DNA of 64,000 nucleotides from Schmidtea polychroa (taxonomy: Eukaryota), in the NCBI GenBank assembly GCA_044892525.1, contig CM097886.1, positions 44,950,001-45,014,000 on the forward strand, given 5' to 3'. Below, piece by piece: positions 424-64,000 of this stretch. Within the stretch, counting starts at the first letter, position 1; each line of letters begins with the position of its first letter. A model generated the notes under the pieces. The model saw only the letters and a list, made by a program, of their open reading frames with translations. It made no database searches and was not told the DNA's origin. Position numbers and translations under genes: made by a program.

Positions 424-2721
424 CCAATTGAAAAGAAATAANNNNNNNNNNNNNNNNNNNNNNNNNNNNNNNNNNNNNNNNNNNNNNNNNNNNNNNNNNN
501 NNNNNNNNNNNNNNNNNNNNNNNNNNNNNNNNNNNNNNNNNNNNNNNNNNNNNNNNNNNNNNNNNNNNNNNNNNNNNNNNNNNNNNNNNNNNNNNNNNNN
601 NNNNNNNNNNNNNNNNNNNNNNNNNNNNNNNNNNNNNNNNNNNNNNNNNNNNNNNNNNNNNNNNNNNNNNNNNNNNATTATTAAATTCCATAATGAGTCA
701 GATTGTATTTATTTATGAGTGGCACCTGCATACTGTGTTTGTATATTTAAAAAAATTATTTTAATTAAAATTTATTTAATACTAAATTTATTACTTGGCT
801 TCACCCGGAATAGATTCATTATAATTTATTTTTGTTATCTTATTATTACAAATTTATTTCAATACTTGGCTATATACAATATTTTTAGTCTTTTGTTGAT
901 CATTGAAGGTGATGAAAAATGTTAAGGGATCCTTTGGCCTTTAAGAAGGCACTCGATTACCAAATCTATGCCTGAATTTGAGCGAAAAAAATTGAAAGTT
1001 GAAAATTTAACCATTAACCTAAAAATGACAAACTGATTATGGATAATATGTATATGTGACCTATAGGCAGGCAGACACGTGCACTTTTTTTTGTTATATA
1101 GATAAAAGTCTTATAGCATAAATTCAAAATAATTGAATTGTTTGAATAATTAAAAGATTTATTCAAATATACATAAATTATAAATTTAATTATATAAATA
1201 CCTTTAATGTGATTATTGTTTGATAATGTAAATAATTTTAGCGAGTATTTTTGTTTTTTCAAATTAATCACTTTTTCAAAATTAATTTTCAAAATTAATA
1301 TATCGTTCAAAATGAAAAAGGATTTAAAAACCAAACAAAAGTTAGATATTGTCCAATATTTATTGTAGAATGGCAAAATTCTCAAAAATAATGCATGATC
1401 ATGAATAATAAAATATCTTTTAAGTTATTTTTTAAATTGGATTTTATTAGTGATTAAATTTGAAACACAAAAAACTGTACATGTATCAAAAGATAAACAT
1501 AAAATCATTTCTTGTTCTAAAAATAAAGAAAAATACCCAAATAGTTCAATTTGAATATTTATTGTAAAAAGCAAAAAACGACACCCCAATTTCAAATATT
1601 CCGTAATTATAAAGATTATCTTTAATAGATTTTTTTGAAATTTTGGAATTTTGACTATTATTTAGATATTTTCCTATAAATTTTAATAAGGAAAATTAAT
1701 TTGTAAAAACTGTAGGGATATCTAGCTATCCTTCAAAAAAAATATTGTTACAAAATCATTCATTTATTATATTACTGCAAAAAACTAATTGGTCTCTTAA
1801 TGTATACGATTTTCTTTGAAAGGGGATAAATTTTGTTCTTTGCATAAAGTGCAAGTTTGGATTGTCTCACCTCTGGTCATAACATAAGCATTCACCGCAT
1901 TTTGCAAATTAATTTTATGATATAATGACTTTAACTATAAAACTTCACAAACGATACTTTCCCATTAGTTATTAAAGTTTTTTAATAAAATCATTAAATC
2001 CGAAATGCCTATTTTTGCATACAGCCCTTATTGTGCTCACTAATATTGGACGATGTTTTCAGTCCATAATGTTTTGATCTCGAATATCAATTTACATATA
2101 ATGGATATAATGCCACATACAGTGGAGAGACCTCCCGTCATCTCTGTATTCGAGCTCAAAGTAAAACATTACACTGAATATATATCAAATTAAAATCACT
2201 TCTAATGATTTCTATTTTGTTACATTTTCCTATACATTTTTTGTTTGGTACACTCGAAACAAGATTCAAGGAGTAAAGTTGAGCTATTTCAGTATTTAGA
2301 AAGAATCCAGACTTTATTTTATCAGCACAAAGGATAAATATTTCATAGCACGGGATTTTTGACGATTGTTGCACCAATTTATTTTTATAAAATGATTGAG
2401 AATTGTCGACTAAAACAGTAAAAACGCTAAATAATAATTATTTAATTTCCTCTTTTAAATGCAATAACTATATGAAAGAAATTTTAACTTACTTCAGTCA
2501 CTTTTTCTTTGACCAGTTTCAAACAATAGGGGGGAAAATTTACTTTCAAAATCAACCAACAAATCAGCAATGTTTACTCTATGTGTCACATTTGGCATTG
2601 GTTTGGCAAGGAATTTTAAAAAAGTTACATTTTTGTTTTTTTTTCTTTCTTATATTTGCAATAAAATTACTAGGAATTTTAATAGTTTCCGGACTGATTT
2701 TAACATTTCAATATAATTCAG

Positions 2722-3571
2722 GAGTCGCCTTTGCTGACGGATCATTGTACCGATAGCCCTTTGGCTACTTTGAAACGTGCTTGGCAAAGTCAGCGCTATA
2801 AAAACACAAATAACGAAACGATATGCAATTCGAATGCTACGGATAACCTAAAGTCTAATCAAGCGTATAATTCGTACAGAGTTAAAAATACTGTTAAGGT
2901 TCGATTATTTTACGATTTTACATATTTGTATAAGTATAAAATTGGTATAAATTGTAATATTTCTCTCTTTTGAGAAAGTGTAAGTAGATATAGAAATAAA
3001 TATATTATATTTATTTGTTTAAATAGAATCGATAAAAACAACCGTTTATTCAAATCTTCATTAATTTTAATGAATGATTCATAAGTAAAAATATCCAACC
3101 CTTGTATTTGTCAAACGAAAAAACCTCCAAAAACCAAAGATTTGAGAAAATGTTTCAAGAGATTCATTGAAAATTGGAAATTATAAATTACTAGAAACTA
3201 ATGTTTAAATAAAATTTAAATATAAAATTTCTGAACGTATATCTATATTCGTCAGTTATTTTTCATTCTGAGATGTTTTTATAATTCAGGAAAATGATAA
3301 TCCAAAAACACAACCAATTAAAACAAAAAACGATAATCGAAAACACCCGTCAAAGTCGTTACTTGATGATGAATGGAACAAAAGACGGCCATTTTTCGAT
3401 GACTTCTACAATGGTAATCAGAATCATAAGGGTAACATCCGCCAGCAAAGACATTACAAAAAGTTGGCTAATAAACTTGATAGATGGGAATTAGCAATTT
3501 ATTTGTTTATATCTTTGATAAATGCCATAATTTGTTTAGTTCTAATGCCGCAATATGCGACGGAGGAATGA
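2722..3571 (+). CDS. Probable last two exons (2722-2898, 3290-3571) of a Cys-loop ligand-gated ion channel-like gene (intracellular loop + M4); upstream exons not resolved
   Basis: Both exons follow ATAATTCAG acceptors and join in phase 0 (donor AAG|GT at 2899). The final exon ends RHYKKLANKLDRWELAIYLFISLINAIICLVLMPQYATEE*, resembling the W..VA.VIDR + M4 helix of nAChR/5-HT3 subunits. By-eye similarity only. Confidence 0.45.
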
Positions 3572-4557
3572 TGAGATGATTAAAAGAAATATTTGTAGAT
3601 TTACTGGAAAGTTTGTAGATTTTTATTTCACTCTATGATAAGCAAATAAAATTTTTAAATTATTTTTATTGAAATTTCCTCTGTGCATTTTATATTCAGT
3701 AAAACCAATTATCTTTTTCTTCATCTTTGATTCGTTTTCATTTACAATTTAAATGGAAATAAAATAAATTAAATTGTATATTTATTTTGTAGTATTTTTG
3801 AAAAATAAAATTTTCCGATATTATATTTCAAAATAAATGAAAAAATTTCTTTTAAAAAGTCTAGAAATATTTTAAATAAAAATAAATGAATAAAGCAGGA
3901 AATAGAATACATTTTATCATGAGTATTCATGGAGCAAAATAAACCAATTATTTGAGTAAAGATTTTTGATAATATGTAAAAGGTATAGTGTATGGAATCA
4001 GCTAATAGAATTAAAATTATCCGTGCGCAAAGCTTAATACAACTTTCGTTGCACCTAGGAAACCCCAAAGTAAAGACTTCTTTTTCCTCTTTGATTCATA
4101 ATGTAAGTCGTTGCTCTGCAAAGGAGTTATCGACCTCTTACAGCATGTTTTTGGAGGGATATGTTTGATCCAATTTAGTCAATAAATAATTCTTAAAGAA
4201 AAGTAATTTTATTTTTCATCTTTTGATTATAGGAAAACATCCAACCGACTATTATTTAATTAATAATCATCTTTTATATTTACATCTTCATCATAATATT
4301 TATTTTACAATTGAAGTCAGAACTGTATTAAGTTCGTCCCCCCCCCTATTTTGATCTTAATACATCAATTGAACCCAAAATTTATTATGCTTATTCACGA
4401 GAGGGCTGGATCAGTTAATTAGGTAAAAATTAAATTAAAATTAGTATTTTTAAAATCAAAAACTAAATGTTATAACAAATTTTAGAACTTTAATATATTC
4501 TGTAATATAAAGTTTATAATAGAAAATTTCAAAAGCAAGTTTATTGTTTTAACTAAC

Positions 4558-5598
4558 TGTTGGCGTTCTAGAGGTAGTTACCTGTCATAACTCAGAAAAG
4601 AGGCTAAACTTTCAGATGGTGCTATCGATAGGGGTGATATTTTGTTGCCGGGATAACGCCTAGAAGGCCTAACACGACTATTTCAGACAACCGACTGTAT
4701 ACCCTCGGGTGTGAAGCGCGTTGATATTGTATACAGCGGCGGAATGCAGGGCAGCTAGTTCGGCTAACCACCGCGCTTTGGTTCGTAGTCAGCGCATTCA
4801 GCGGGTCTTGGTGTAATGATTTCTACTCGATTTTGATACGGTTGCTGCAACAGGTGTGAGAGCAAGAACAGACTGAGCAAGAAGAGATCGTGGAACAGAA
4901 GTGGCGTCGACAGATTTAAGACCTTCGGGTAGGAGATGGATTGAAATGATATCTAATTACAGCAAGGCGTTACACTGGGGCACTCAGGCCTCCAACTCCT
5001 TTTCGGTATACATTCTCGACAATAGCTCGTGTTGTCTCCGTATTACAAGACTCTGGGTTCAGCTTTCGGTAACGATCTCGTCGTGAGTCTTGCCGAGTCT
5101 GAAGATTCTCTAATGTAATACTTGTGCTTTTTCTGGGGCGAGCCAAGTGGCTTCCATTTGATTCAGTAGTTTTTGCATTTTACTTAATTGCTCACGTAGC
5201 TTGCAAAGTTCATCCATCAGTTGTAGCTCTTTAGGAGAAAGTGCTATTGGGGCATTTGCTTTTGTCATTTCTGGGAAAGAAAACTAGACATAAGCAAAAG
5301 GATTATAGTTGGGGTTGAATTGGGCATTTTTATAGAAATTTTATTTATTAATGCATGTTATTTTCATTTTTTGCTTTTCAATGTGTTTCTTTTTGCAACT
5401 TCTTACTTGTCATTAATTTTAATTATTTTTGTTTTATTTTTTAATATAGTGTTTGTTTAATAATATGTTTATTTGGAGTATTTTTTATTATTTTAAATAT
5501 ACTTTTTGTCGTATATATGCTTATCCTAACTTCTCCGGCAGGCTTATTTTAAGTACTAGTAATTAATTAATTTTAATTACTAGCCTTCTGGCTCAACA
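4558..5598 (-). mobile_element. Degraded solo LTR related to the large element at 49331
   Basis: On the minus strand it starts TGTTGAGCCAGAAGGCTAG (cf. TGTTGGGCTGAGCCGAAGGGTAG at 49331) and ends GTAACTACC..CGCCAACA (cf. GTAGCTACCCGCCAACA at 53252-53268). It has an A-rich U3-like tract and a pseudogenised homolog of the LTR ORF. No clear TSD. Confidence 0.7.
4620..5268 (-). pseudogene. Pseudogene homologous to the LTR-encoded ORF 51963-52706
   Basis: ATG at 5268 gives ..KLREQLSKMQKLLNQMEATWLAPEKAQVLH*RIFRLGKTHDEIVTES*TQSLVIRRQHELLSRMY. This aligns without gaps to DLQAQIGKYKRKIDELEGTWFSPTRMKEAQKKLHRSEHCRDALISESRAQRSLIKEQSEALHKLY. In-frame stops at 5112, 5061 and further on. Confidence 0.75.
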
Positions 5599-7215
5599 CA
5601 AATAAAGAATTTATTGTCGACTAGAAAATAAAATTTCTCAAGAAAACCAATATTTTATAAACTTGTTACATGTTTTATTAAAAATGTTTCCATTTATTAT
5701 ATTTTGGAATTACTATGTTTCTTACGAATTTGTTCAATCGATCATCTGAAAGTTTCCATTATTAATTCTACGATATGAAGGTAACATTCTTCTAAGGATT
5801 TCTAGAGGAAAGGGGATCACTTCTTGGATATATTGAAATTTCAGCGCGGAACTGTATTCTAGACAGCTTTCCTTGTTGAAAAACAGAATAAAACTTTTAA
5901 TTTTAATATCGAGTTGTTTTTATTTATGGAATGATTGTTAACTATATGTAGACATTTTGCAGCTTTATTTTTTTCATTCCATTAAAATATTTTGATTTTA
6001 AATCATGTTCAATTCTTTTGAATTTACAGAACATCATTGATAGAATAGTAAATCTTAAAATCAGAACTTCCAGCTACTATTAGTTATTAGTTATTTATGA
6101 CAAGAAAGTTTATATTTAAGTTAAATTTTTAAAATTCTAATTGGAAAATGTCGAAGAGGGGATAACAAAATCTGTAATTTTTGTTTTTATCTATGTCAAC
6201 ACTATAAACACTAAAATTATGGACAGTAGGTTCTGCTTAACGCCCGCCAGGAGTCTGTTTGAATTGCATCGAAAGCATTCGGTTCAAACAACATAAGTAG
6301 ATAGAAGCTTGGGAAGACGTATGAAAACTCGCAAGGATCGTGTAACTTGAAATTCTCAGAGTTTCTTATTTCTTTATGTATATAAAGTGTATATTATACA
6401 CATAATTCCGTTTTTACGCAATAGATGTGTTTTCAAAAGACTCGCGTAAAAATGATACAGTATCCAAATAAAAGTATGGGATTAGTTTTACATTTAAAAA
6501 ATCAACTAAAATAATTTCATTTTAGTAAACAAATTTATCATTTTGAAGCGCGTTCCACACTTTTTTATAATACCTTAAAATAAATTTGATTGCGCAGCTT
6601 CTATATTGTTTATCATTTGTAATAGTTAGATATTATCCATAAATATTGCTACTTTATCATCTGTATGTACTTTAGTTTTGCGTGTTTTATTTTATTAATT
6701 TTATTTCTATTTAAATGAGTTTGAAAATTTAAACTGGTATATAGTTTTAGCCACAACCTTGAGTACATGATATTGTATACCCGGTCGTGGGCACAATGTA
6801 TTTTATTCCACTCGTCAAAACATGTTAATTTTCTATGTATTTTATTTTATTATTTTCAGAACATCTAATTTATTTAATTGAATATTTTATTTGGAATTTT
6901 TGAATGACGTTTTGAAATTTTTTATTGAAAAATTTATGATAAGATTTATTTTATTATTATAAGAACTTTTTTTAATTTTCATCACTGATGATAAAAATTG
7001 ATAATGCCTAATTTATGAAAAACTAATTGTAAGTGATTTCGTTGAAATATTAATAATTCTATGTGTTTTAATAATAGTCTTACAAGTGGAAAATTTAACC
7101 ATTCTCTTTAATTTCGAAACTCATTTTAAAAATACTTAATTATAGTGTAAAATTAATTTTATTTCAATCTTTTTCATATAATAATTCTGGAGTTTAAGTG
7201 TATTTTTTATTTATT

Positions 7216-7836
7216 ATGTTTAGAAAGTTGTTTCTTCATTTAAGTAAGACTATCAAAATGCCTGTTATTGGGCTTTTATCAGCAGCTGTAATCAAAGTAA
7301 ATTTGGAAAATAATAACAGTGAATCAAATAAAATTGAAATAAAAAGTTGGTGTCCGTCCAAAGCTTTAATATCTTCTTTACAACTTCAGATGGATATTAC
7401 AGTTGGAATCGTAAATCAAATGTTGCTAGAATTTAATGATTATACAAATCAATTGGAATCGACAATTAAAAATTTAATTAAAAAAATGAAACATGAGCTA
7501 ATTGATGACAAATGTCTTGATGAATGTGTTGAATTGCGTGGATCTTTGCAATTGTTGATTAGCAATATAAATGAAATTGAGTTGTGTTTAAATGCCGCTG
7601 TAAATGTATTAGAAACTTCATTGAGTTCCGCGTTTTTTACTTGTGACAAAACAGTTGAAAATACGATTGTAAGTAGGATTTATAGTTCTGGTTCGAAATC
7701 GCTGACAGATGCCAAAGAATCCATTTTGCAATGCAAGAAATTAAAGGAATTATTGTTTCAAGAATTGTACGAAGAGCAACGGAGCATAATTACTACCACA
7801 GTGACAGATGATCAAAATTCATCAATTATTAAATAA
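7216..7836 (+). CDS. DIABLO: Smac/DIABLO-like mitochondrial helical protein (206 aa, intronless)
   Basis: The basic/hydrophobic N-terminus MFRKLFLHLSKTIK resembles a transit peptide. DDKCLDECVELRGSL..EIELCLNAAVNVLETSLSSAFFT aligns ungapped with Smac [38 protein letters not shown], and SKALI matches SEALM. Confidence 0.6.
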   Translation: MFRKLFLHLSKTIKMPVIGLLSAAVIKVNLENNNSESNKIEIKSWCPSKALISSLQLQMDITVGIVNQMLLEFNDYTNQLESTIKNLIKKMKHELIDDKCLDECVELRGSLQLLISNINEIELCLNAAVNVLETSLSSAFFTCDKTVENTIVSRIYSSGSKSLTDAKESILQCKKLKELLFQELYEEQRSIITTTVTDDQNSSIIK

Positions 7837-9897: not shown

Positions 9898-9956
9898 CTC
9901 TACTAATAATTAATAAATTATATATTATAAGAACTTTTGTTCCAATTTCTTTTCCA

Positions 9957-10072
9957 TTGTATTTATTAAAAAAGCTTGAAGACTATGAATCAGTAAATAT
10001 ATCGATGTTTTCACATATGAATTGATATATTTAATGATTTATAGTCTTCAAGCTTTTTAATAATTTATATAA
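9957..10072. mobile_element. Short foldback MITE, family A (internally deleted copy)
   Basis: ATTGTATTTATTAAAAAAGCTTGAAGACTATGAATCAGTAAATATATC is inverted against GATATATTTAATGATTTATAGTCTTCAAGCTTTTTAATAA. Confidence 0.7.
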
Positions 10073-48784: not shown

Positions 48785-49656
48785 ACACATTTCTGTAACT
48801 ATAGAATTGGTGAGTCTTAGGTAACCCACATCTTACCCGTTCGTGTCGTTTGCGACGAAACCCAAGATACAATAACTTTTTTAACCATCCGACACCCGTT
48901 GAGCGATCAACGTTGGTGATGTGTCGCATGGGTAAATACTCGCGAGAAGTCAGTGTACATCTGTATTTTTATAATCACCGAGCATTCCAATGGGTTCATG
49001 GACTGCCAATAGAAATTCTGTGCAAGACTTTGGTTAGGTCCCTTTATGTCATGTTACAATGACGCGAACCTGGCTGATGGCTTGTCCCTCATGCTATGAT
49101 GTGAGACGGCGTTACCCAGCTGGAAAATCTTTCACAAATGCATTTGGATTGGAAGTGAAAATGAACTACATACAAGTTTATTAATGTATAAGGACAACAC
49201 TAAAGTGACTATCAGATATGTAAATCAAGAAAAGTTGAGTGTCCAGGGATTCGAACTAAATTGATAACTAAGTACTAAACGAAAGAATCGTATATTAATT
49301 TCGATTAAAAGTCAGAAATTTTGATCCTTCTGTTGGGCTGAGCCGAAGGGTAGCTGGGAGATTAGGTCAAATGTACTAAAGTAAAATAAAGAAATAAAAT
49401 AAACAAAGTTACGAACAAAATAGAATAGAACATAAGAAAAACAATAATTAGAAAATAGGAATTAAAACAAAAAAATATAAAAATAAGAAAAATTAAAATA
49501 GGACAATAGAATGACGAAAAATAACGTAAAATATATTAGATAATAAGGAAATTAAGGAAAATAAATAAAAACATAATTTTAATAAAGAAAATAGGAAGAA
49601 ATAACCCAAAAACAAGGAAAATAAATTAAATTAATAAAATAAGGCGGTATTCAATT

Positions 49657-49693
49657 CTGATTGGTCCGCGTAAATAGAAAACTAATATATAAG
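49657..49693 (+). promoter_or_regulatory. LTR promoter: inverted CCAAT/Y-box (CTGATTGGTC) and TATA box (TATATAAG, 49686)
   Basis: Consensus motifs just after an A-rich U3-like tract, followed by an ATG-free ~185-nt stretch ending at the donor G|GTAAGG (49892). Confidence 0.5.
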
Positions 49694-51962
49694 CAGACAT
49701 TAAAATCATTATAATTACCGTTAATTCAACAACTACTATAGAACTAGCGATTCACAGCAACAGACACTGACTTACAGGATCATCACAAGGACTATTCCAA
49801 GACTCAAGAAACTTCATCTAAATCTATATTCGATTCTAGTATTAATTAATTCTACTTAGTACTTTTCGACTCAGCCTATTTGAAACACTCGGTAAGGATT
49901 TTTGGATTTCTTATTTTGAATTTATAAGTAATGGTATAATCTAATTATAATTTAAATTTAAAGATCTTACCTTTTCTTTTCGTTTGATTTCAAGCATGTT
50001 ATTTAATTTAATGATATGGTTATTTAATAATAAATGATTTACTTTCTAGGAATTATTGATTTTCCTTTGATGAATTATTTTTATGAGTTATTATTATGTT
50101 AATTAAATTTTTGAGGAACGTGGCGTTGAGATACTCTATGTCATGGTGTGAGGTGCCTTCGGGAGCTCCACCGGTGGACATAGGGTATTTGAATCACGCA
50201 GCTAGATTGGGCCGAAATGTGAGGGCTTCTTCACGGGTCCAATCGCTGAAGGTGCGACCAAAATCTATAGGCAAATTGTGGCAGAAAATTGATAGTCAGA
50301 TAGTGATTGAAAACAAAGATATGTAATAAATGAATCGGAGGATTCTTAGGTATTCGCGCAGTGATTGAGGGCGTCACACCATCGTCTCCAGATATCGTTT
50401 CCACTAAGCCAAATTTTCTCTATCATCGATGTAAGTTGTGTGTCAAACAATCGTTCGGACATTAGTGGGGCTATATGTGATATATCTTCGATGTTCATGC
50501 TTGCGCTCGGAACCTATTCCTACAAATTTTCGGCCTATGACCTTTTGAACTGTTATTTCTTTCATCTAAAAGTTCTCTTGAAGACATAGTCGCAAGGAAG
50601 CTCAAAGTAGATTGCTTCAGATAATTATTAGGATTATTCAAAATGACTGTTTACGAATAGATTGTAGAACCACGTAAAATGATTTATTTCAGATAATTAT
50701 TAGAATTTCATAAAACGAGTTTGTTCCAAATAAAATTTTTAATTACATAAAATAATTTACTTCAATTAATTTTTTAGAATTATATAAAAATATTTACTTC
50801 AACCAATTTTCATAATTACATAAATGATTGGCATCAAATAATTCGAAATGAAAAATGCAACTAAGTCGAGCCAAGAAAAATATGTATATTTTTTTTTAGT
50901 TAGCCTGATGAGTCTTGTTACTTAAATGTAAAATTCCCGTATTTCATGAAGTTGGAAATCCAGCGGGATAGGTAGAAAATCTCCAGAATTTCAGGAACAG
51001 ATCGATAAATCGCATTTGAGAGGTTAAAAAGAAATCCACCCTTGGAGCAAATTATATCCAACATTTACGACATAGAGAATCGTAATTTCTTCCAATGTTT
51101 CCGTGAGAATTATTAGGCCATCAGCAGGTGCAGGGGAATTGTGAGCAATTACGCAGTAGATAGTAACCAGAGAATATGCCAGCATGCAAACATTGAAGAA
51201 CCTCCATTAGTAGTTACGAGTAGAGATAAGTGTGTGAAGTCGCAACTCGCATGCGTCACACATGTTCAAACACACTATAGCAGCCAATCGCAGGGTGTAA
51301 AGTTACACTAACCTTTACTCATAGAAAATCAGGCCGAACGTGTCAGATGGAGTTTTCCGTTATCTAATTAAACCACTGACCGGCATTAGATTTCATCGCT
51401 CGGGATGGATAGTCAACCATCAGGCTGATATTTTGCTTATCTACTTAGTAGGATTTGCTCTGCTACTTTCTCACATCGATACAATTTTCCGTTATCACAA
51501 ATAAATAATCAAAAAATTAAATAACTTTCCGTTCATCATAAACGAACTATTTAAAGGAAATTATGGACCTCCCTTTACCGTAAGTACTTAATCGACCCCG
51601 GTACATGATACACGCATCGAAATCACTCATTTGGGGGGAAAAATCAACAATTTCACTCGATTCTCTGCAAACGTGAATTAGTGACTTCAAGCGGATTAAA
51701 TAAATAATAATTTTCATCGACCGAGAATTTCTCTCACTAGTGGTAATGTCTCCCTTTCCTTGTGCGAAATCTGGCTTGATCGATTTATCTTCTTATAATT
51801 AAAGACCCAAAAGGTATGAGGATCCATCGTGCAGTAGAATCTTGTTGACCGGTAAACCCATAATTTTGTCTATGATCAGTAGAGTATGAGTGTGGTCAGA
51901 TGGCGACACTCTCGTTGTTTTAATCTATTTTCATTTTTCATTTTTCTTCACAGTCACTCAAA

Positions 51963-52706
51963 ATGTTGCCCAATTCCACAACCATTCTCAGACCTTGTTT
52001 TTCTTGCTCCGACAAGAATTCGATCATCAAAGATCTCCAGGCCCAAATCGGGAAGTATAAAAGAAAAATAGATGAGTTAGAGGGGACATGGTTTAGTCCC
52101 ACCCGGATGAAGGAGGCTCAGAAGAAGCTGCACCGAAGCGAGCACTGTCGAGACGCGTTAATTTCGGAGAGTCGGGCGCAGAGGAGCCTAATAAAAGAGC
52201 AGTCGGAGGCGCTACACAAATTATACGTCCAGGCAGCAACTACAAGGAAGATCGCGAAGATCCCAATTAATGAAGCCAGTAATCTTTTCCCAGCACATCA
52301 TGATATCTCTGGCGGGTCTTCATCTCCAGTCGGAAAGTCCTGCCATGGGTGCGTGGAGACCGAGCTCTCTCCCAGAAGTCAAGACGTCGTATTCACCGGA
52401 ACTAGTAAGGTACCGTCAAGCACCGCATCTTCCTCAAGAGTGCAAATACCGACCGCTTCAAAACCTAAACGTCGGCAATTGTCACGCGCCGAACGAAAAC
52501 GAAAGCAACGCGAGCGGGCTTCCGTCAAACAGATTTTACCATCAATCGCCACCCCAGTCGAGGGCAGCAGTAATTCAGCAGTCGTCGATCTAACAACCGG
52601 AATCTCAGGGCGAGTCATCTCCGCTACCGGGGTGTCATGGGAAGAAAATGCCGCCGAATTCTTCGATTTAAACGAGTTACTCGCCGACTCGGAGTGGGAA
52701 AAATGA
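51963..52706 (+). CDS. LTR-encoded 247-aa protein: CxxC + coiled coil, basic NLS-like tract, acidic-aromatic C-terminus (transactivator-like)
   Basis: Acceptor TTTTTCTTCACAG ends 10 nt before the ATG; KPKRRQLSRAERKRKQRER; WEENAAEFFDLNELLADSEWEK; AATAAA at 52842. A homolog exists at 4620-5268. Confidence 0.75.
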   Translation: MLPNSTTILRPCFSCSDKNSIIKDLQAQIGKYKRKIDELEGTWFSPTRMKEAQKKLHRSEHCRDALISESRAQRSLIKEQSEALHKLYVQAATTRKIAKIPINEASNLFPAHHDISGGSSSPVGKSCHGCVETELSPRSQDVVFTGTSKVPSSTASSSRVQIPTASKPKRRQLSRAERKRKQRERASVKQILPSIATPVEGSSNSAVVDLTTGISGRVISATGVSWEENAAEFFDLNELLADSEWEK

Positions 52707-52841
52707 GAACTTCCCCGTAAAATGGCTTCATCCTCTAGAGGGACTTGAACATCTACTGATAACATTTTCTATCTTTGTGTTTCCTTGTTCTTGTAAATTG
52801 GGTGGTATAAGTTTGTAATATATGTGTATAAAAATTCTCAC

Positions 52842-52900
52842 AATAAACCATTTTTGTCTGCATACGTTTTTTTTGTGTTTATTTTAAGACAGTTGATTCG
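52842..52900 (+). terminator. Polyadenylation signal in the LTR (candidate R/U5 boundary)
   Basis: AATAAA at 52842-52847 followed by a T/GT-rich downstream element. Confidence 0.5.
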
Positions 52901-53276
52901 AAATTGGTAAATAGCATTGAGAGTCGCAAAAAATTAGGAGCATTAGTCAATTGGCAATCCCAGTTAGAAACATGGCGATTGGTGACGGGATAAAAGACGT
53001 AAGTCCTTCTATCGGCAGTCAGGGTTAGGAAGTCGAGGCCTCAGTAAGGAGTAGTCCGAAGGAGATGGCTCACCTGCTTACTGGCGTCTCGCCGACATAG
53101 CACAGTTCCAACGTGAAGCGATTCACGGGTGCTATGTTGGAGTATAGGTTATGTACGGGCCCTGCTCAGCGATGACCGGGATAAAGACGAGTGTAATTGA
53201 TGGGGGCATTCATCCTCTAGACTAAAAATGGTACTAAAGAAGGTCATCCGAGTAGCTACCCGCCAACATAATTTTA

Positions 53277-53294
53277 TGGGGGCTCAGCCGGGAT
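53277..53294 (+). promoter_or_regulatory. Primer-binding site complementary to the 3' end of tRNA-Pro
   Basis: TGGGGGCTCAGCCGGGAT versus the canonical tRNA-Pro PBS TGGGGGCTCGTCCGGGAT (16/18). Confidence 0.85.
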
Positions 53295-53601
53295 CTAGAT
53301 TGAAATTTCCATTGACTAGTGCGAACTTGACTGGGATTTATTATTGAAATTTTGTCGAATAGTGTGAATTCACCGGGATTAGTGATTTTAATTGACTGGC
53401 GAATGCAAATTGACTAATGCTTATCGAGTCTTATTATAAAATCACGAGTAGAAAATAATAAAATTAATGATATAAATAAAGTAACTTTAATAATGGAGAA
53501 ATAAGACAAAAGTAAAATAAATTATAACGATTTAAAAGGAGAATGTTTGATGAAACAACCACTAATTAGTTATATATTACTGAAACATTTTTTATATAGA
53601 C

Positions 53602-54087
53602 ATGACGAAATTCGGGGACCAGATACAACAATTAATCAACTTCATAAATATCGAGAATGACTCCCTTAAAACGCTGACACAAAAGAGAGAAAGAATTAAC
53701 ATCATACTACTCCAATCAATCGGACAAACACCAGTCGTCCCCAACCACATGTTATTAGCCACAGGACTAAGTCACCCAGATGGGAAGGTAAACCCGGAAA
53801 CCGTGTATCAATGGTATCAAGAGAGATTGAACCACCCAGCATTAAATCTTGATTATCAACGTATAAAAGACCCCTTAAATACCATATCAGATACAATCGA
53901 GCGGAAAATACAAGAAAAACTGACTCTACTACGAACTTGTTTTGCTTGTAAACTTCGTCCTATTCGCGTACTGTTTTTGCCGTGTGGACACCTCAGTCAC
54001 TGCGAAGAATGTGTGAACGATTTAAAACGATGTACGGTATGTAGGCATGAGATAAAAGAAACTCATATGGTTTATTATGGTGAATAA
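53602..54087 (+). CDS. 161-aa protein with a C-terminal IAP/MIB/MYLIP-type C3HC4 RING (putative E3 ligase), inside the retroelement leader
   Basis: CFAC-x11-CGH-x3-CEEC-x6-CTVCR..I..THMVYYGE. Acceptor TTTTTTATATAG is 2 nt before the ATG; AATAAA signals at ~54084, ~54147 and ~54205. No BIR motif. Confidence 0.88.
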   Translation: MTKFGDQIQQLINFINIENDSLKTLTQKRERINIILLQSIGQTPVVPNHMLLATGLSHPDGKVNPETVYQWYQERLNHPALNLDYQRIKDPLNTISDTIERKIQEKLTLLRTCFACKLRPIRVLFLPCGHLSHCEECVNDLKRCTVCRHEIKETHMVYYGE

Positions 54088-54799: not shown

Positions 54800-56169
54800 G
54801 TAAAGGCCTAGAAAAGCGAGAGATAGCAGTTAAGCTACAATGAGCTAATATCTGAATTAATAGAGAAAGGGAATATTAAAGCTAGCTAGAAACAAATTGA
54901 ATGTAATTACGAAAATTGGAGTTTAGAGAGGAAATAAACGAGCTCGTGGAAAAGATAATAAGATTATAATGAAAAAGGAAAGGGAAGAAGGAAACGAATT
55001 AAAGAGATAATGGAAAATAAAGAATAGGCGAAACGATGATAATGAGTAAAGAGGAAAGTAACCAACTAATTAAAGGGATCCCAGTGAAGTAGAGAAACTC
55101 TACGGAATATTTTTTTTTTGGTTAAACCGGGAAAATGCATTTTATTGGTTCCAGAGTAGAACCGAGTGGAATAATAGTAAATATGAAAAGTAAAATAGCG
55201 ACAACAGCGCAAAAGGATTAGGAAAATGAAAGGGGGGTAATAAGCAGTGACCGACAACGACCTATTCATATTATAAGTGATAAAAATAGATAATTATTGC
55301 GACTCTATAGATAATTGTTACTACCCCATATAGATAATTTAAAATCGACGAAAAATTCGGGCTGATGGGAGATTATAACCCGCGGAAGTAATTGCATAAA
55401 AAATAGGGGAAGCATAAACAGAACCTAAAAGGTGTCTGTGTTTGAATGTTGCAGAAAGAATGATGAAGTCGTGTAAGCAGATGCAACACGAGATCATTTT
55501 TTCATTTTAGATATCAAACCAATCCAGTCAACCAAGACAATCCAGAACCTGCACAAAAGGAATTCGAAGAAATCGACAATCGACCAAGAATAAATCCATT
55601 CAGAACCCGCACCGAGAGACACAGCAACCGGAAGACTCCAGAACGGAAGAAGATACAGATAGCGACATCTCCAACTTCGAACGAATCATCGATATATTCA
55701 ACCTCATAGTATTAGCAGCCATCTGTCAAGGACTAGTAAATCTCCTCAGAATCCCAGTAGCAGATTCATACAGAATACTTATCGAAGGAAACACAATCAG
55801 AACCGAACTCGTCCAATTCAGTAGCCGCTAATTACCAAGAAGCGTAAGAAAGGAATCACGGATAAACCCAATCTTAGATCTTCAAGTAAGCCAGGAGACG
55901 TATTATTTTCAGGAGACGAATTACAACAACTCAAAAGAGGACGATCTATTAAACATCAAAGAGGAATATCACAAGGATCAAGAAGAACCAATCAAGTACC
56001 TATATTTGACCAAGAAAATCTCGGATACACCCCTAGTCGATCTCGAAGCAGAGAAAGTCTGTCCGACATCACTAATAGTTTAGCAACGTCAACCGAGGAA
56101 TTATCAGCCCAAAGTTTAGTCACATCGTTAGACAATTTGAAAGAAACAGACGAATCTAGAACACCAATC

Positions 56170-57594
56170 ATGACGAATGTCGTAAAAACCGACGAGTATA
56201 AAGAGAAGTTCAGAGGAGAACCGTTCAACGGAAATGCAAACAAGTTAGCAACGTTCATAACCAACTTCGAAGTTTATATCGATGTGTGCGGATGGACATC
56301 CGAAGCAGTTAGTAAAAGGATGCCGTTGTTTTTGTGCGATAGCGCATTAGAAGTGTATTTAGAGGCTAAAGAAAGAAATACGAAATTAGATAAATGGGAC
56401 GATATCAAAACATTCCTGAAGAAAACTTTCGGAGCTAGCAAACCAATAAATCAAGCACTCGGCGAACTAGCAAATAGGAAACAAAGAGCAAATGAATCCA
56501 TTACGTTATATGCCAGCGAATTGCGGAGATTGGCAAAGAAAGCAATGAATGGGAAATTACCAGAAGAAAATTTGATCGGTTATTTCATAGAGGGATTACG
56601 CCGAGAAGAAGTAAGAGCATCTGTAGGCTGTCAGATGTGTACAACGTTAGAAGAGGCCATAGATTGGGCTACGAGGTGCGAACTCCACCTCCCAGCACAA
56701 ATGAACATCATGCAAGAGGATGGGAGGATAGCGACAGCCAAAGTAAAAACGGATAATGGAGATAATAACAACCAGGAACCAAAAATGAATCAATTCATAC
56801 CAGGAGCGCATCAAATTTTTAAACCACCACAAGGACGATCAAATGGGAATAATGGTAATCGTAACAACCTGAATAATGAGAACAATTTTAATAATTGACG
56901 AAATATGAACGATAACAAGCAGTGCCGAACATGCGGTAAACCAGGACACTGGGACAGAGATTGCTATAGAAATTCAAATTGTAATCGTTGCGGACGGCGT
57001 GGACATACCGAAAATGTATGCCAATTGCGAGGTTGTTTTAACTGTGGTCAGCCAGGTCACATCTCCAGAGATTGCCGAGAAAGGGGTCAACAACAACGAC
57101 CACCACAGCGAAATAATAATTATATGGCGAATCCGCAACGACAAAGTAACCCTAGCGAAGGAAACCAAATGAACGTTATGCAGGAAATCTCGCAGATGAA
57201 ACAGATGATGCAACAAATGATGAGACCAAGACCAGAATCAGCACCACAACAAACCCAGAATATACGTATGATGAGGAGTACCGAAAATCTCAACAATTAT
57301 GAAGTACATCAACATGTACAAGAATGGCAAAGACTGCAGGCCGAGGAAGAGAGGATAAAACAAGAACGCAACCAACAACGCCAAGAACAACCATTGCGAA
57401 TAAATATGATGAAGTTAGTAAAAGACCTGAAAAGCCAGTATTGCTACAATTACGGGAAAAACCCAAGGGTAGTACCCATGACGGAACCAGAAAAGGTAAA
57501 AGAAACAACAACGGAAATGAAAACAGAATTCAACCACGATTTTAAAAGGAAACCAGAGAATTCAGAAAATATTCTGGAAAAAGATAAAAGATAA
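56170..57594 (+). CDS. gag: Gag: capsid (56170-56898) and nucleocapsid with three CX2CX4HX4C knuckles (56923-~57077), interrupted by one in-frame TGA at 56896
   Basis: PFNGNANKLATFITNFE..W..F..KQRANESITLYASELRRLA..FIEGL; CRTCGKPGHWDRDC, CNRCGRRGHTENVC and CFNCGQPGHISRDC. Both parts are in frame 1. Confidence 0.9.
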
Positions 57595-58360
57595 AATAGA
57601 AAAGAAACATGAAGAAACGGAAATAAGAATAAAAGAGGGAAACAACCAAAACAAGGAGCAAATCAGTCAGTTAAACCACCAAATGCTACAAGAATCGGAA
57701 TCAGAAGAAACAACGATATTCGAAAATAGAAAACTAAAGAGAGTACCTAGGATGAGAAATTTGCGAATCAACATGATGAAAAGGACAAAAGGTACGTCGT
57801 CCTCAGACGAAGACTATGTGAGCAGTTTGGGTGGAGAAATACTACAGCTAAACGAAATAAGCGAACCTCCGAAAGGGGAAATCAAAGAGGAAGAAAGCGA
57901 AAGCGAGATAACCAGTGGAAGTGAAGACGAGGATATCGAAATAAAGTTGAGAAAAGCAAGGGAGGAAGCGATAAAACAGGTAGCCGAAATACTCCCGGTG
58001 GTAGTGAGAAACCAAGAGTTCATCGATGTAATACCATTCAGGCGATTCGTACAAAAAGTGATGAAATTGGAAGGAAACGAGAAAGATTTAATACCAAACG
58101 AGGAAAAATCAATTATAAAAAAGTATATGGAAAAAATGAAGCAGGCCGATACCACGCGGTATGTAATAAAAATCAGAACGAGCAGAGGACTTGAAAGAAT
58201 GTGGATCAAAAGTACAGTCACCGACGAACTTTTCGATTGGATACGAGAACATTTGGGAAGTTCGAGAAAGAAAGAATATCTGTATCAATACCAAGGAGAA
58301 CAGATCAAACCAGATATGCACTTAGTGGGAAATGTAGTGATGGTATGGTGGATGATGTAG
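57521..58360 (+). CDS. Polyprotein segment in frame 2 (acidic region + ubiquitin-like C-terminus), linking gag to the long frame
   Basis: Open from 57521 to the TAG at 58358. Repeats the LRINMMK heptapeptide of the upstream frame. Ends YVIKIRTSRGLERMWIKSTVTDELFDWIREHL..YQYQGEQIKPDMHL. Confidence 0.7.
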   Translation, partial: KQNSTTILKGNQRIQKIFWKKIKDKIEKKHEETEIRIKEGNNQNKEQISQLNHQMLQESESEETTIFENRKLKRVPRMRNLRINMMKRTKGTSSSDEDYVSSLGGEILQLNEISEPPKGEIKEEESESEITSGSEDEDIEIKLRKAREEAIKQVAEILPVVVRNQEFIDVIPFRRFVQKVMKLEGNEKDLIPNEEKSIIKKYMEKMKQADTTRYVIKIRTSRGLERMWIKSTVTDELFDWIREHLGSSRKKEYLYQYQGEQIKPDMHLVGNVVMVWWMM

Positions 58361-61300
58361 TCATGATGTACGATAAAATAATATTACGAGCGGAAGACGA
58401 CACCTCGTTAAGCGAAATGGGTATGTGGGACAATCATCAGATAATCAGGATAGTACCAATGGATGAATTTCGAACAAGAGATATAACATATCAAAAAGAA
58501 ATACGAGACCGGATGAAAACGTTATATCAAAAATCTACAGAAATAATTGAAATCCACCAACAATGGTTAAAAGAAAAGGAACTACAAGGAAAAATCACGA
58601 AACTAAGTACCAGATCCTGCAGACGGACCCCATGGGAAAGAGTGTGGAATGCAGAAAATAAGGAATGGGAAATCCGGAAAGGAATCTTCGTAGAAACAGA
58701 CATTGGTGAGACAGAAAGTGAATCGGAGGAAGAAGAAGAGGAACCTCCAGAATATGAAGAGGAAGGAAGGGGACAGACATCAGATGACGAAAGCGAGACG
58801 GATGTCACATCAGAAAGCGAAAATGAAGCGAGACACATTCATGCAATGAGGAAAAAGGAACGTGAATATGCTGATATGGACGGCGAGGAAGCGACGGAAG
58901 CAAGAGAACGAGAAGAGAGAGAAAGATATAAACAATTAGGCGATATCCTAATAAAGGGAGCGAAGAATCAAAAACGACAAGTAATAACATTAGCTAACTT
59001 CATTTTAAAAATATCGGATAATATCCATTATCTGAGGGAGATAGTAAAAACTATAGAAGAATACCGACAATACAACGAATGGTACCCGGAACAACTGGAG
59101 CAAATTATCGGGAAGTGGCGAAACCATGAGTGGTCACAAGATACCCAAGAGAGATACCGAATCCGAATCAAATACCCAGATAAGAATGTTGAGGAAGTAG
59201 AAGTACACCCAACCATCAAAATCAGGGAATTAAAAAAGAAATTGGCATACGAAACTCCTTTCCATCTACAACTGCAAGGAAAATCACTAGACGATAATGC
59301 AGACGTCGGAATAACACCCATGAGATTGGAAGAGACAAATGTATTAACGATGGCAGAAACGTTGGGGAAACCATTAAAAAGGAAAAGTAAAAGTGACAAA
59401 CCGACAAAAGGCAGTTTGAGTACTCCAAGTCCGAACAAAGCCCCAAGTAAATCTAATGAAACTGAAGAAGTTGAAGAGATTATCCTCGAAGATAGTGACG
59501 ATGAACCAGGAGAAAGATCACCGCTATTAGTAAGATGGCCGACAGGAGCCGAAATGTGGACTAATAACCAGCCATCAACGAGTTATCAACAACCAACGAA
59601 ACTAAACATCAAAGAAATCATCGACAATACTACGGAAACCGAAACGGACGAACAATTCCTGAAGCAAAGAGAACCAACGAAAATAACACCAGAAGGTCAA
59701 ACGGATAAAATAATAGATGAATGGAACGAGTGGCTGAGAAATAACGATAGTTCATTACCCAGAACGGATAACGAAAGAAATCCGAATTACGAAAATACCA
59801 GAGAAGCCGGAACGATGATGGAAAAACGGGCAAAAGGAAGGCCTAAGAAACAAGGAGGAAAGTCTGAGTTCAAAACCAAGGAACAATTAAAGCAAGAACA
59901 AGGGCAAGTTCGATTGGAAAAATTGGATAAAATAGTATGGGATCTAAAGGAAGCCCAACCAACGGTTGAAAGAGGAGAAAAATGGATACGAGAATTGATA
60001 AAAGATATGTTAATAATAACAAACCCACAACTTAGACGCTTGTGGCAACGGAAAGTAGCGAGTGTGGAAGCTAGACAGTTATGGCACACCGTTTCGGGGA
60101 TAATCCCAAAGTTAATCAAAGAGAAAACGAAAACCACCAAAACGGATTGGGATGAAACGAAGAGAGTGATTGAACAGCTCACGACAAATGCAAATGATGA
60201 CGAACATCATCTAGTGGTAATCACTTATTTGACGTATAATTTGATGGGATTAGCGGCAAGAAAAATACCGAATAAACAGTTTGCAAATCACGTGGAAATG
60301 ACCGTTTCAATCATAGAGAATACTATTGAACCACATATTATTCGTGCCGGAGGATGGAAAAGACTTATACAAGCGCCACGAAAAAATGAGCAAGAAAGGT
60401 CGATGCAAGTTAGGTTGAAGAAGTTGTTGAATGAACTAGAATGGGAACTACCCATGAAAGACCCAGCAAGCCGAAAAGCATCGATAAATTCGTTAATGAT
60501 GACTATGATGATATGGATGTTGTGCACAAGTGGAGCAACGGGTTTTACCATCTACGATTGTGATAATATGATAATGAGAGATAAATACTCATTGAGAGAC
60601 ATAGAAGAATGCAGACAAGCATCACCCAACAAATTAGACATAGTAAGAACAAAAGTTACTTACCATGTATACCAAGAATCAGATTTCATTAGAACGCAAG
60701 CAAGGGAATGCGTGGTATCAAAAAAGGTACTCGCATATTACTGTGGACAATATTCGTATTCGACTCTTATACTACCCGGTCTGGATAAAGAAATCGTATC
60801 AATACAACGAGAGGACTGTAAAGAGCTATTTAGAACCGGAGCGCTAAAAATGCATAACGGAGTGACGATTCACGGACAAACTGGAATGATTAAAACCGAA
60901 AGCGTTTACGTATCCGGAAAAGTAAAATCATCAGATGGGTCATGTAACGGAGGTACGTATACGATCCGAGGCGAGGTAATATCGGGAGTAGTAGTAATCG
61001 AGTCCTATACGGTTGAACTAAAGGAATACGAAGCGCAATTTGACGCAAATAATTACCAAATGAAGACCAACCCAGCGTGTAGAGCTACAGAAAACGTATG
61101 CAGGACAGGAGTATCAACTATAATCTATGAAGCTAATACCCAAAAATGCCGACTCCAACTGTTAAAAAGTGCTTTGTTCAATGAAGTAAAAGGAGAAATT
61201 TATGAGAACGAGAACGACGAGGATGGAAACGACAGAGTGAGAATGCGAAATGGAAAACCAATGCCACCATCTCCCAGAGAAAAAAGACTCTCAACGCAGA

Positions 61301-64000
61301 AAACACCAACAGCGTTAATTACCGACGATCCAGATCTAGGTATGAGATTTATCAAAGAAAAAGAAACCACCAAATGCGACAGTATAGTATATAAAACCAA
61401 TTACGCTGGTATCTATATGTCGAGACAAATAATCGATAGAGCAGTGGGAAAGATAGCAACGGAGGACGTAAAACTATACTTATATGCAAATAATAAAATG
61501 GATTTTCTATTTCATCGTGGACAAACGACCTTGCAAAAAGTATATTACGATCTGATACAAAACGATTGTTCATTGAATAAAGAAATACTGAAAACAAAGC
61601 TAGCTATTGCGATAACACACCCAGATAACACGATGCCATCACTCCCATTACCAGATGGACATTTTGGTAGAATGGTAGGAGAAGTGATGTACACATACCA
61701 GTGTACCAAGACGTATGCACGAATGCCAGAAAAATCCATACTACCCGAAAAGAGATGTGCAAACGAATTAGAAATCCGTTATAAAGGACAAAATCGATTC
61801 GTCCAACCAGTCACGAGAATTATGAATCCAGTGGGTTTCTACCCAAATCTCTTTAACTGTTCTAATGCATACGGACCTTTGTATGAAAGACCCGATGGCA
61901 AATGGATGATGTTACCGGGAAAAACCATATCCGAGGAGCCCAAGAAATATGGATTAATAGAACTCGCCACAGAGCTGGATTTCAAACCTATAGACGTGTC
62001 AAACGGTGGTATGTATTCCCCAGAAGATCTAGAAACAGCACGACTTAACGTACTCTTCCCAGCCAGACGAGAATCCATTTTGTCAAATATGGTTACAATA
62101 ACTGGGGGAACAAATTATCAATCAGGCCCGAATTACGAACTGCTATTATCGCCAGACCATTTTCAACAAGCTACGTCAAACATGATGAAAGCCATGTGGG
62201 GAAGATTTTTAGTTTTTGGACAAATGATGGCCGGAATATTGGGGATCATACTCATAATTCAGATAGTCAGAGTAATACTAACACAAATGTTAGCTTGTTT
62301 TGATATATACAAGCGAGAAAAGAAAGTAAATTGGAAAATGATAGTAGGCTTTCTACCATTCCTAGCTAAAACCATGGTGTTACATGGTCACTCAAAGGAC
62401 ATTCACCGAATAAAACGATTAATTAAAATATTAACAAAGATTAAAGGAACCGACGAAGAAGTAGGCAGACGATTCCGGAAAGTAATGTACGATGAAGCAA
62501 CAAGACGACAATTGAAAAAGAATAAGCCAAAATTTTTGGACCGATTTAGAAGTCAATCATCTAACAGCAATAGTGACGACGATGATAACGGGAACGATAA
62601 ATGTATATATCCAAACAGAAACCCAAACGAAAAACCAATGGAAACAGCACCATATTGGGAGAAGGAAAAGACAAACACCTGGATCGCCAATGGAAGCTAT
62701 ATACCGCCAGATATCGTGGGACCACAAGCAGCTTTGACCATGACACAAAATATGTATCCGCAATTACCGAGTCAACCAGGTATGCATTATATGCCAACAC
62801 GACGTACCAAAAGTGTAGATCAAGCAGATGACGTAAGAACAATAGCAGCGATGAGTCTACCTGGAGGTCCAGCAGTAACAGTTATGATTCAAATCAATGG
62901 TAAAGAAACCAATGCTATGATAGACACCGGAGCTAATGTATCAGCGATAGCGATTAATCAAATTCCCAGTAAGCACTGGAAGGATATCGAATCAACAACA
63001 ATCCACATCATAGCATGTAGTAAAGAAACAGTAGACGTGGTCGGAAGATGGTGGACTACATTGAGATACCAGGACAACGAAATTGAAACGTATTTGGCAG
63101 TAATACCAAAACTTAGCGTACCATGCATAATCGGAACGGATCTGATGCCAGAATTATTAAAAGAAGTGGTAATAGACTTAACAACCATGTGTCTAAAGGA
63201 CAAAACCGGTAGAATATGCAAAATGAATGCAGTAATCAGATGTCCAGAAAAAATAATAGTACCAGCGAAATCGCAGATGATTTGTCAGATAAAGGTGGAT
63301 ACGGGTATGGAAGGAGAAGTTATCTTTGAACCAAGCAAGTCATTCGAAAAGCGACGAGAGTTACCACTCGCAAGGGAAATAATCACAATAAACCAAGAAG
63401 GAGTGATACCGCTCAACATCACGAATTTCGAAGAGGAAGACAAAATCATTTATGAGAACGAAAAATTGGGAAGATTGACCCCAATGATGGACATAGAATT
63501 ACCGAAAGTGACCAACGAGATGATCAAAGATGATGAATTATGGACAATAGATAGTATGTTGTTGACGAATGATGAAAAGAAAAAATTGCACCGATTGTTG
63601 GTAGAATATAAAGATATATTCGCCATCTCAGATTTAGATTTGGGTACATGCGATGTTACCCTACATGCAATACCACTCATAGATGAAACTCCAATTGCAC
63701 TAAGACCATACAAGCTAGCAGAAATGCAAAAAGAAATAGCCGAAGCAGAAGTACAAAAGATGCTAGACGCAAAAGTAATCGAACCGAGTTGCTCACCCTG
63801 GCAATTCCCAGTGGTCATGGTAAAAAAGAAAGATGGCACCCAACGATTCTGTATCGATTATCGGAAGTTAAACGCAGTAACCAAGAGAGATACCTATCCA
63901 TTGCCGGACATCAATGAGATGTTATTGATATTGCAAGGGGCAGCATATTTTACTTCTTTAGATCTAAAAAGTGGATACTGGCAGATTAAAGTCAAAGATG
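58195..64000 (+). CDS. pol: Long polyprotein frame (~1935 codons, no stop in window): Ubl domains, Bcl-2-like domain, signal peptide, Env-like glycoprotein, protease, RT (partial)
   Basis: Frame 1 was translated by hand from after TGA 58192-58194 to the window end with no stop; first ATG is at 58345. It is absent from the supplied ORF track, presumably because it lacks a stop. Confidence 0.92.
59980..60372 (+). other. Bcl-2-fold-like domain within the polyprotein
   Basis: RELIKDML ~ Bcl-xL BH4 RELVVDFL; KRVIEQL ~ EQVVNEL; a hydrophobic alpha5 LVVITYLTYNLMGL; IEPHIIRAGGW ~ BH2 LEPWIQENGGW. The NWGR motif is not conserved. Confidence 0.6.
60484..62385 (+). other. env: Chuvirus-like / class III (gB-type) envelope glycoprotein domain with internal signal peptide and TM
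   Basis: Hydrophobic SLMMTMMIWMLCTSGATG then FTIYDC, YYCGQYS, GEVMYTYQC, CANELEIRYKGQNRFVQPVTRI, GGMYSPEDL, LFPARRESIL and TM WGRFLVFGQMMAGILGIILIIQIV. REKR at 61276. Confidence 0.85.
62854..63200 (+). other. Retropepsin aspartic protease domain
   Basis: INGKETNAMIDTGANVSAI (DTG at 62923) and CIIGTDL. Confidence 0.92.
63560..64000 (+). other. Reverse transcriptase N-terminal part (Gypsy type)
   Basis: PIALRPY..EVQKMLDAKVIEPSCSPWQFPVVMVKKKDGTQRFCIDYRKLNAVTKRDTYPLP..SLDLKSGYWQI. Confidence 0.95.

Follow-up and report, generated by a model that had tools for sequence, protein, structure and literature searches.

Two long terminal repeats (LTRs), lying in opposite orientation with 43.7 kb between them in a 64,000-nucleotide stretch of Schmidtea polychroa DNA (the window), very probably carry the same protein gene, which belongs to no known family and represents a gene family located within LTRs. 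One of them, element A, is decayed, and the other, LTR B, holds the gene as an intact open reading frame (ORF) (Table 1). According to the explanation that we consider the best as a whole, with a probability of roughly 55%, the gene would be a U3 gene expressed by splicing, most likely for a nuclear regulator of the element itself, and A would be its dead relative. An earlier note on this DNA had described A as an ancient solo-LTR relative validating the ORF and the termini of B: its observation is confirmed and its interpretation is partly supported. In particular, the coordinates of the two LTRs (1041 and 3938 nt) and the shared layout of their termini were correct. The window consists of AT-rich eukaryotic DNA with three assembly gaps, and planarian DNA is reported to contain over 70% A/T (PMC11410931).

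Table 1. Position and basis of the features of element A, of LTR B and of the element downstream of LTR B
Feature	Position	Strand	Basis or remark
Element A, LTR of 1041 nt	4558..5598	minus	TG...CA; decayed, probably solo, probably internally deleted
A-rich 5' tract of A with TATA-like box at 5334	5330..5580	minus	composition and motif scan
Putative splice acceptor of A (pyrimidine tract and CAG)	5271..5288	minus	motif; ATG 2 nt on
ORF remnant of A, 196 codons	4681..5268	minus	single frame, six in-frame stops; HMM iE 1.1e-20; hhalign probability 98%
Ungapped 66-codon block of A	5002..5199	minus	protein alignment; homologous to B aa 25-90
LTR B, 3938 nt, 5' LTR of Burro-like element	49331..53268	plus	3' end set by PBS-like site; 3' LTR beyond window
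Candidate internal U3 promoter of B	49659..49893	plus	inverted CCAAT, TATA 49686, ATG-free first exon, donor 49892
Tandem repeat within LTR B	50616..50843	plus	period 37/72
Putative splice acceptor of B (tract and CAG)	51936..51953	plus	motif; ATG 9 nt on
Intact LTR ORF of B, 247 aa	51963..52706	plus	predicted helices, linker, basic helix, acidic-aromatic tail
TATA box 52827, AATAAA 52842 and GU/U-rich downstream element	52827..52890	plus	putative U3/R/U5 junction, short R
PBS-like 18-mer, tRNA-Pro type	53277..53294	plus	sequence match; 8 nt past LTR B
Accessory ORF with C-terminal C3HC4 RING	53584..54087	plus	Pfam E 6.8e-12; no BIR found
Gag: capsid, three CCHC knuckles	55825..57594	plus	Pfam, translation; stop at 56896-56898
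Polyprotein frame: weak ubiquitin-like and Bcl-2-like segments, Monjiviricetes-type fusion glycoprotein, protease, RT start	58195..64000	plus

The LTR reading frame and its relatives

Residues 25 to 90 of the B ORF (52035 to 52232) align without gaps with A from 5199 to 5002, 17 of the 66 residues being identical, with a score of 103. This is the alignment of about 65 residues reported before, when the two stops of A that fall within the block went unmentioned. The score was reached by 0 of 2000 shuffles in each of four nulls (whole, 10-aa block and two heptad-preserving shuffles), whose maxima ranged from 60 to 72, and by 0 of 60 block shuffles compared against the whole window, where the best other tile scored 48 (118 scored). 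Shuffling and coiled-coil masking had been proposed as controls, and the match survives the heptad-preserving shuffles. A tblastn search of the 247-aa ORF, also proposed and here confined to the window, missed A at default settings and recovered it with permissive ones at an E value of 4.9e-07, while blastn of A against B returned solely A-rich low-complexity matches, none of them informative.

A profile built from 11 outside relatives, with A left out, hits A from 5238 to 4792, and A and B are the only matches to it in the window. Since B was used to find those relatives, its own match is not independent, whereas that of A is. It follows that homology extends over about 150 codons and includes, beyond the coil, the basic tract. 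If the stops are read as X, this tract of A holds 6 R/K of 16 residues, in register with the tracts of the relatives, as the earlier reading of a basic tract in A had implied. The default tblastn miss and the 17 identities in 66 residues could be taken to mean that the match between A and B is an artefact of coiled-coil composition, a reading whose probability we regard as practically negligible: it is refuted by the heptad-preserving shuffles, by the 11-relative profile, which matches A independently and past the coil, and by hhalign.

Within the block, identity between A and B at codon positions 1, 2 and 3 amounts to 27, 39 and 20 of 66, compared to about 17 to 18 expected, the third position being near its background (16.9); the difference between positions 2 and 3 is significant (Fisher p 0.0015). 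Furthermore, pS is 0.89 and pN 0.48, with pS exceeding pN in 2000 of 2000 bootstraps. Such a codon pattern supports long purifying selection, which would have acted in the past along the lineages; since A is a pseudogene, this concerns the lineages and none of it acts on A now. Thus, the proposal of an ORF under selection stands for the past lineages, but the dN/dS value that had been suggested as a check takes no usable figure, as pS is saturated, the block was chosen by protein similarity and A decayed later.

A search with B among 1.84 billion representatives yielded 11 relatives at an E value of at most 0.001, and profile searches added five more, so the LTR ORF, presented earlier as an old family feature, is borne out as a real and old protein family with 16 outside relatives. 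The family is conserved across subfamilies at 20 to 40% identity. A Met precedes the TW motif by 39 to 48 residues in 11 of the 16 relatives, by 39 in A and by 40 in B. A basic tract with at least 7 R/K in 16 residues occurs in B and in 10/16 relatives, and the acidic tail is clear in just about 6/16, many relatives being truncated. These relatives are known as proteins alone, and the location of their genes in LTRs is putative. Eleven of them are fused to 11 different unrelated Pfam domains, a pattern that gene models splicing into a dispersed repeat would produce. The fused database proteins (P0001, P0003, P0005, P0006, P0008, P0009 and P0013-P0017) may be annotation chimeras or cases of real splice trapping by the LTR.

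No name for the family emerged from the other searches. A word-index protein search with B alone gave 0/1016 candidates at an E value of at most 0.01; sequence searches of Pfam, PHROGs and PDB with the LTR ORF gave no match above cutoff, and no host homologue of the LTR ORF was found in the protein searches. The best ESM Atlas score, 0.84, is a lead-level match to an unnamed cluster, and Rfam gave 0 matches across the window. Burro elements, accessory ORFs and retroviral genes encoded in U3 each represent a kind already known. A literature search by listings and abstract openings found no description of an LTR-encoded coiled-coil/Arg-rich family in Burro-type elements, which the figures or supplements of the primary Burro papers may show.

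Termini, extent and decay of element A

The terminal motifs that the earlier note listed as shared do exist, but they require gaps of 5 nt at the 5' end and of 7 nt at the 3' end, so the dots in its patterns stand for variable gaps. Both LTRs run from TGTTG to CAACA. TGTTG is found 166 times in the window, counting both strands (5-mers of this kind recur about once per 770 nt), and two unrelated LTRs of the window have the same ends, which makes the terminal 5-mers generic. Past the terminal bases, the similarity score of the 5' end was met by 9 to 50 of 3000 random sequences and that of the 3' end by 1 to 28 of 3000; an earlier scoring of the ends had given weaker values (606 to 1679 and 215 to 601 of 20,000, respectively). 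The ends of A score nearly equally against the two unrelated LTRs. In an unbiased scan of 7,124 TG-starting positions, each end of B found its best non-self match in an end of A, with small margins (20 versus 17 and 18 versus 17.5), and the two matched ends enclose the ORF in the correct order and orientation. The termini of B are supported.

At the 4558 boundary of A, the GC content jumps from 16% to 45%, and the A-rich tract of A has the same position as the A-rich tract of B in the composition scan. The flanks of A, compared for a target-site duplication, agree at 2/4, 3/5 and 1/6 positions, with a chance of 0.16 for at least 3/5; a duplication is not significant, at chance level. Beside A, the best match to a PBS within 200 nt is only 9/18, and the internal region of B has no match by tblastn or blastn in 501 to 4557 and 5599 to 12000. 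Nine purines occur among the 20 nt upstream, where a polypurine tract was sought. Thus, the description of A as a solo LTR holds as far as no PBS or internal sequence lies beside it, while its flanks match at 3/5, which happens by chance in 16% of cases.

It is possible to regard A instead as a stray pseudogene, derived from some accessory ORF, enclosed by chance between TGTTG and CAACA, both common words, and, hence, uninformative on the termini of B. The frequency of the 5-mers, the lack of a significant target-site duplication and the near-equal scores of the ends against the two unrelated LTRs would agree with such a coincidence, which is nevertheless very improbable: it has to account for two ends that are both top non-self matches in the scan and flank the ORF with proper order and orientation, as well as for the sharp GC step at 4558 and the A-rich 5' tract like that of B.

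The in-frame stops of A, at 5112, 5061, 4986, 4959, 4800 and 4791, correspond to about 0.2 to 0.25 substitutions per site; it follows that A is decayed, with no age given. A frameshift is not apparent over about 150 codons, an outcome with a p value of about 0.2 at a low indel rate and about 0.001 at a high one, so that it is unremarkable if the rate is low and odd if it is high. Judged from its reading frame, A is a pseudogene, a dead copy from a subfamily other than that of B: with six relatives, all from one clade, it shares 28 to 39% identity and with B 20%, and its placement in the tree has 64% support. Being nearer to other subfamilies than to B, A is not an old copy of the B family. Therefore, of the word "ancient", the decay with its six stops is retained, but A is undated and no old member of the family of B. 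The TpG ratio of A is raised (1.32), and targeted mutation was considered as an explanation but rejected, other elements reaching 1.18 to 1.28.

After its basic tract, A shows neither an acidic tail nor TATA/AATAAA in the motif scan, and the distance from the ATG to the LTR end is 711 nt in A and 1306 nt in B. Since A is without the acidic tail and the promoter/poly(A) block, the four-fold contrast in length may represent a deletion rather than a lineage difference. The values of 1.0 and 3.9 kb are right, but the difference between lineages put forward with them is not established by a single decayed copy, the 3' LTR of B being outside the window. In our model, A would go back to LTR-LTR recombination, after which it would have ceased to be coding and probably been deprived of a portion of its 3' half. 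The value of this dead fragment is that it testifies, in addition to B, to the ORF and to the termini.

The window holds further repeats and genes. Two solo LTRs of another family (33841-32849 and 29256-28456, minus strand), with TGTTG...CAACA ends, are 78% identical over 663 aligned bases; the former has a clean 4-bp target duplication, and the LTR ORF is absent from both by profile search. A third LTR-like stretch, at about 28400-27780 (minus), has a short motif in common with those two. A DNA transposon (43470-45786) is bounded by 33-nt terminal inverted repeats and has a DDE_Tnp_1_7 transposase that is split among three frames. Short related inverted-repeat elements, probably a MITE family, lie at 236-387, 9969-10058, 14801-14875 and 23589-23664. 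Host genes are represented by Na/H exchanger pieces with unusually long open frames (19166-20650 and 25442-26035, minus) and by a TLC-domain exon (46899-47327, plus). An ORF of 316 aa (31298-32248, minus), with no Pfam match, combines a Cys/Trp-rich part, one hydrophobic segment and PPxY-like motifs. Another, of 141 aa (35355-35780, minus), contains a GDTDS motif, which we take to recall family B DNA polymerase.

LTR B and its element

The TATA and poly(A) signals 3' of the B ORF would place this ORF in U3. The stretch downstream of that block is the most T/G-rich among the 12 TATA-AATAAA pairs of the window. Given that no TATA/AATAAA follows the ORF of A, B is the source of the U3 reading. 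For mouse mammary tumor virus (MMTV) and RSV, a U3 location of the poly(A) signal and a very short R are described (PMC12789967), which the block of B would fit. An acceptor-like site precedes the ATG in both A and B, whereas just 5 of the 2112 ATGs of the window have one. The extra 2.3 kb that B has 5' of the ATG contains the tandem repeat and a probable intron, whose candidate donor is one of 10 GTRAG sites in B, and A has its TATA-like box at the place matching the second TATA of B (49686). From these motifs, the U3 position and the splicing of the LTR gene appear likely. Together with the ATG-free exon and the donor at 49892, the second TATA could allow every LTR to work as a unit of its own.

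The first nine bases of the PBS-like site equal the conserved start reported for proline-tRNA-primed ERV sequences (PMC10602909). Nine nucleotides of this site are complementary to 49336-49344, at the start of LTR B, a length reached by 0 of 20,000 random 30-mers; A retains six of those nine complementary bases (686 of 20,000 random). Through such complementarity, the two ends of the RNA could be held together, or the 5' strand of the primer tRNA, once freed, could be bound. Just 5' of LTR B, we noticed an 85-nt inverted repeat (47789-48064) and three telomere-type TTAGGG units (48767-48784).

As the predicted domain order shows, LTR B belongs, as the 5' LTR, to a Burro-like Ty3/Gypsy element with an env, which the window leaves inside the reverse transcriptase (RT). 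Retrotrans_gag is followed by CCHC knuckles (Pfam E values of 6.8e-12 and 1.3e-11), with three knuckle motifs in the translation. The mononegavirus-type env (PF24664; E value of 5.5e-70) shares its frame with protease and RT and comes after the BCL2-like region; ubiquitin/SUMO-like and BCL2-like motifs precede it in the right order, with sub-cutoff E values of 0.005 and 0.02. In the published elements, a dUTPase-like segment was called through HHpred between protease and RT; here, the stretch 63211-63450 matched 0 Pfam families. The frame changes 5' of the polyprotein, near 57.5 kb and at 58.2 to 58.4 kb; in this copy, gag and the region 5' of the polyprotein are broken, and the LTR ORF is open.

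This organization resembles that of the giant planarian elements Burro/GYPSM1, for which an accessory ORF 5' of gag, a CCHC Gag, a ubiquitin-like and then a BCL2-like segment (both below cutoff here) and a mononegavirus-type env that shares its frame with the protease and RT behind it are reported (PMC6431247). Different from Burro/GYPSM1, gag and the region upstream of the polyprotein are broken in this copy, and MATH, BIR and ankyrin were not found: in the ORFs scanned up to 64000, the RING stands alone. Thus, the element is Burro-like and not Burro1. The RING ORF, between PBS and gag, is possibly a reduced counterpart of the IAP region of Burro1, and the leader contains tandem repeats of 40 nt (54652-54798) and 21 nt (55286-55339). 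The text section on the Burro/GYPSM1 elements names no LTR-encoded protein (PMC6431247). The expansion of Burro1 is reported to be limited to two planarian families (PMC13465017).

Predicted structure and candidate functions of the LTR protein

AlphaFold2 predicts for the B ORF two long helices, aa 15-39 and aa 46-99, which are interrupted at the invariant Trp43/Pro46, with a pLDDT of 85 to 97 over aa 21-100, followed by a disordered linker, a basic helix (aa 175-194) and an acidic-aromatic tail (aa 226-246). A homodimer model of aa 12-118 scored 0.44, compared with 0.00 for the best control, with at least 75% contact agreement between runs and a pLDDT of at least 78. In benchmarks, the same mark was reached by 21/30 solved pairs and 0/23 single chains (microbial) and by 17/29 solved pairs and 0/30 single chains (eukaryotic), but by 1/7 eukaryotic pairs without an older solved relative; the pass of a long coiled coil may reflect its likeness to solved ones. 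Foldseek against BFVD and PDB gave 0 matches at an E value of at most 0.001. The best VIA-align Z score is 8.3 (rmsd, 3.6; 96 aligned), among tied helical matches that include ESCRT-III and Mediator subunits, a level that is common for long helices and neither names nor excludes a fold. As neither Pfam, above its cutoff, nor the fold searches provided a clear counterpart, the function is deduced from motifs: the modeled dimer, the basic tract and the acidic tail point to a nuclear regulator.

In the mechanism that we propose, the gene lies in U3 and would be read from a spliced mRNA through the acceptor just 5' of the ATG. This mRNA would start at the second promoter near the 5' end of the LTR or, for the copy in the 3' LTR, upstream in the element, and would end at the LTR poly(A) site. 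The product would dimerize through a parallel coiled coil, kinked at a conserved Trp-Pro, and would continue with a flexible linker, a helix rich in Arg/Lys that serves nuclear import and nucleic-acid binding, and an acidic-aromatic tail. Most likely, it would act as a nuclear trans-acting regulator that raises the transcription of its own element, like Tas of foamy virus. In our ranking, the role of transcriptional activator comes first, as a tentative assignment based on motifs, followed by RNA-export factor and then by host decoy.

Known systems offer partial parallels. In foamy virus, a second, internal promoter makes a regulator of the virus's own promoters (PMC12789967). Our working model would share with foamy Tas/Bet the second promoter and the self-acting regulator; however, the foamy internal promoter is in env and the candidate here in U3, and no homology was found. 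MMTV sag is an ORF in a long U3, expressed from spliced RNA (PMC12548423); the layout predicted for LTR B would resemble it in the ORF inside a long U3, in the poly(A) signal 5' of the start site and in a very short R (PMC12548423, PMC12789967). Different from MMTV Sag, which is a type II membrane superantigen, the LTR protein combines a charged coiled coil and a basic tract, and it has no Pfam match to Sag. A predicted parallel coiled-coil dimer with a basic region also recalls bZIP proteins (PF00170), matched at a Pfam E value of 0.036 in 1/12 members. In bZIP proteins, however, the basic region stands directly ahead of the zipper, whereas the basic tract of the LTR protein lies about 75 residues after the coil (aa 15-99).

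An RNA-export factor of the Rev/Rex/Rem type would use its Arg-rich motif to bind structured RNA of the element, its coil to oligomerize and its tail to recruit export factors for the long unspliced RNA. Rev combines an Arg-rich motif with an export signal and with motifs for oligomerization (PMC6435700). Both spliced and unspliced RNAs seem to be required by the element, and the likeness to HIV Rev (PF00424) would extend to the Arg-rich motif of the relatives, the predicted oligomerization module and the presumed spliced expression. Furthermore, the Arg-rich part of Pfam REV (profile positions 25-53) is matched by one relative at an E value of 0.0007 to 0.0013. That match, however, stays below cutoff (19.1 versus 22 bits), concerns a low-complexity tract in 1/12 members and does not include B. 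The predicted architecture also differs, with the long parallel coil apart from the basic tract, and the folding of the U5/leader stretch is not above that of shuffles (z of -1.3), with no response element coming to light there. On balance, we consider export unlikely.

Alternatively, the protein could be a coiled-coil decoy directed at the host, opposing piRNA/chromatin silencing or cell death, loosely as Sag serves MMTV. The element also has the RING ORF and the weak Bcl-2 and ubiquitin-like segments; Burro1 is reported to guard stem cells against apoptosis through its RING/BIR region (PMC13465017) and to be under PIWI control (PMC8532177), and solo LTRs, too, would express an LTR gene that is complete in itself. 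Against these points, the searches gave no host homologue, and the conserved basic tract and acidic tail would better suit a nucleic-acid regulator, so that we rank the decoy as rather improbable.

The preferred reading, a transcriptional regulator, suggests that these elements keep a regulator gene within their terminal repeats, like some complex retroviruses. In a wider and, in our judgment, doubtful version of it, the giant, env-bearing Ty3/Gypsy elements in an invertebrate would have independently evolved the control circuit of a complex retrovirus: an old, fast-diverging U3 regulator (coiled-coil dimer, Arg-rich motif and acidic tail) with its own promoter, intron and poly(A) site, solo LTRs acting as expression units and host splice traps, and an LTR start that pairs with the PBS region, closing the RNA ends.

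Burro-type elements are known for captured anti-apoptotic cargo and are reported to benefit planarian stem cells. For the control that such long elements exert on their own expression, the LTR family offers a concrete candidate, a putative regulator of the Tas or Rev type beyond Retroviridae. At the least, gene annotation is corrupted by the repeat, as the 11 chimeric proteins of the databases show. If the proposed reading is true, solo LTRs would be potential protein-coding units and terminal-exon traps.
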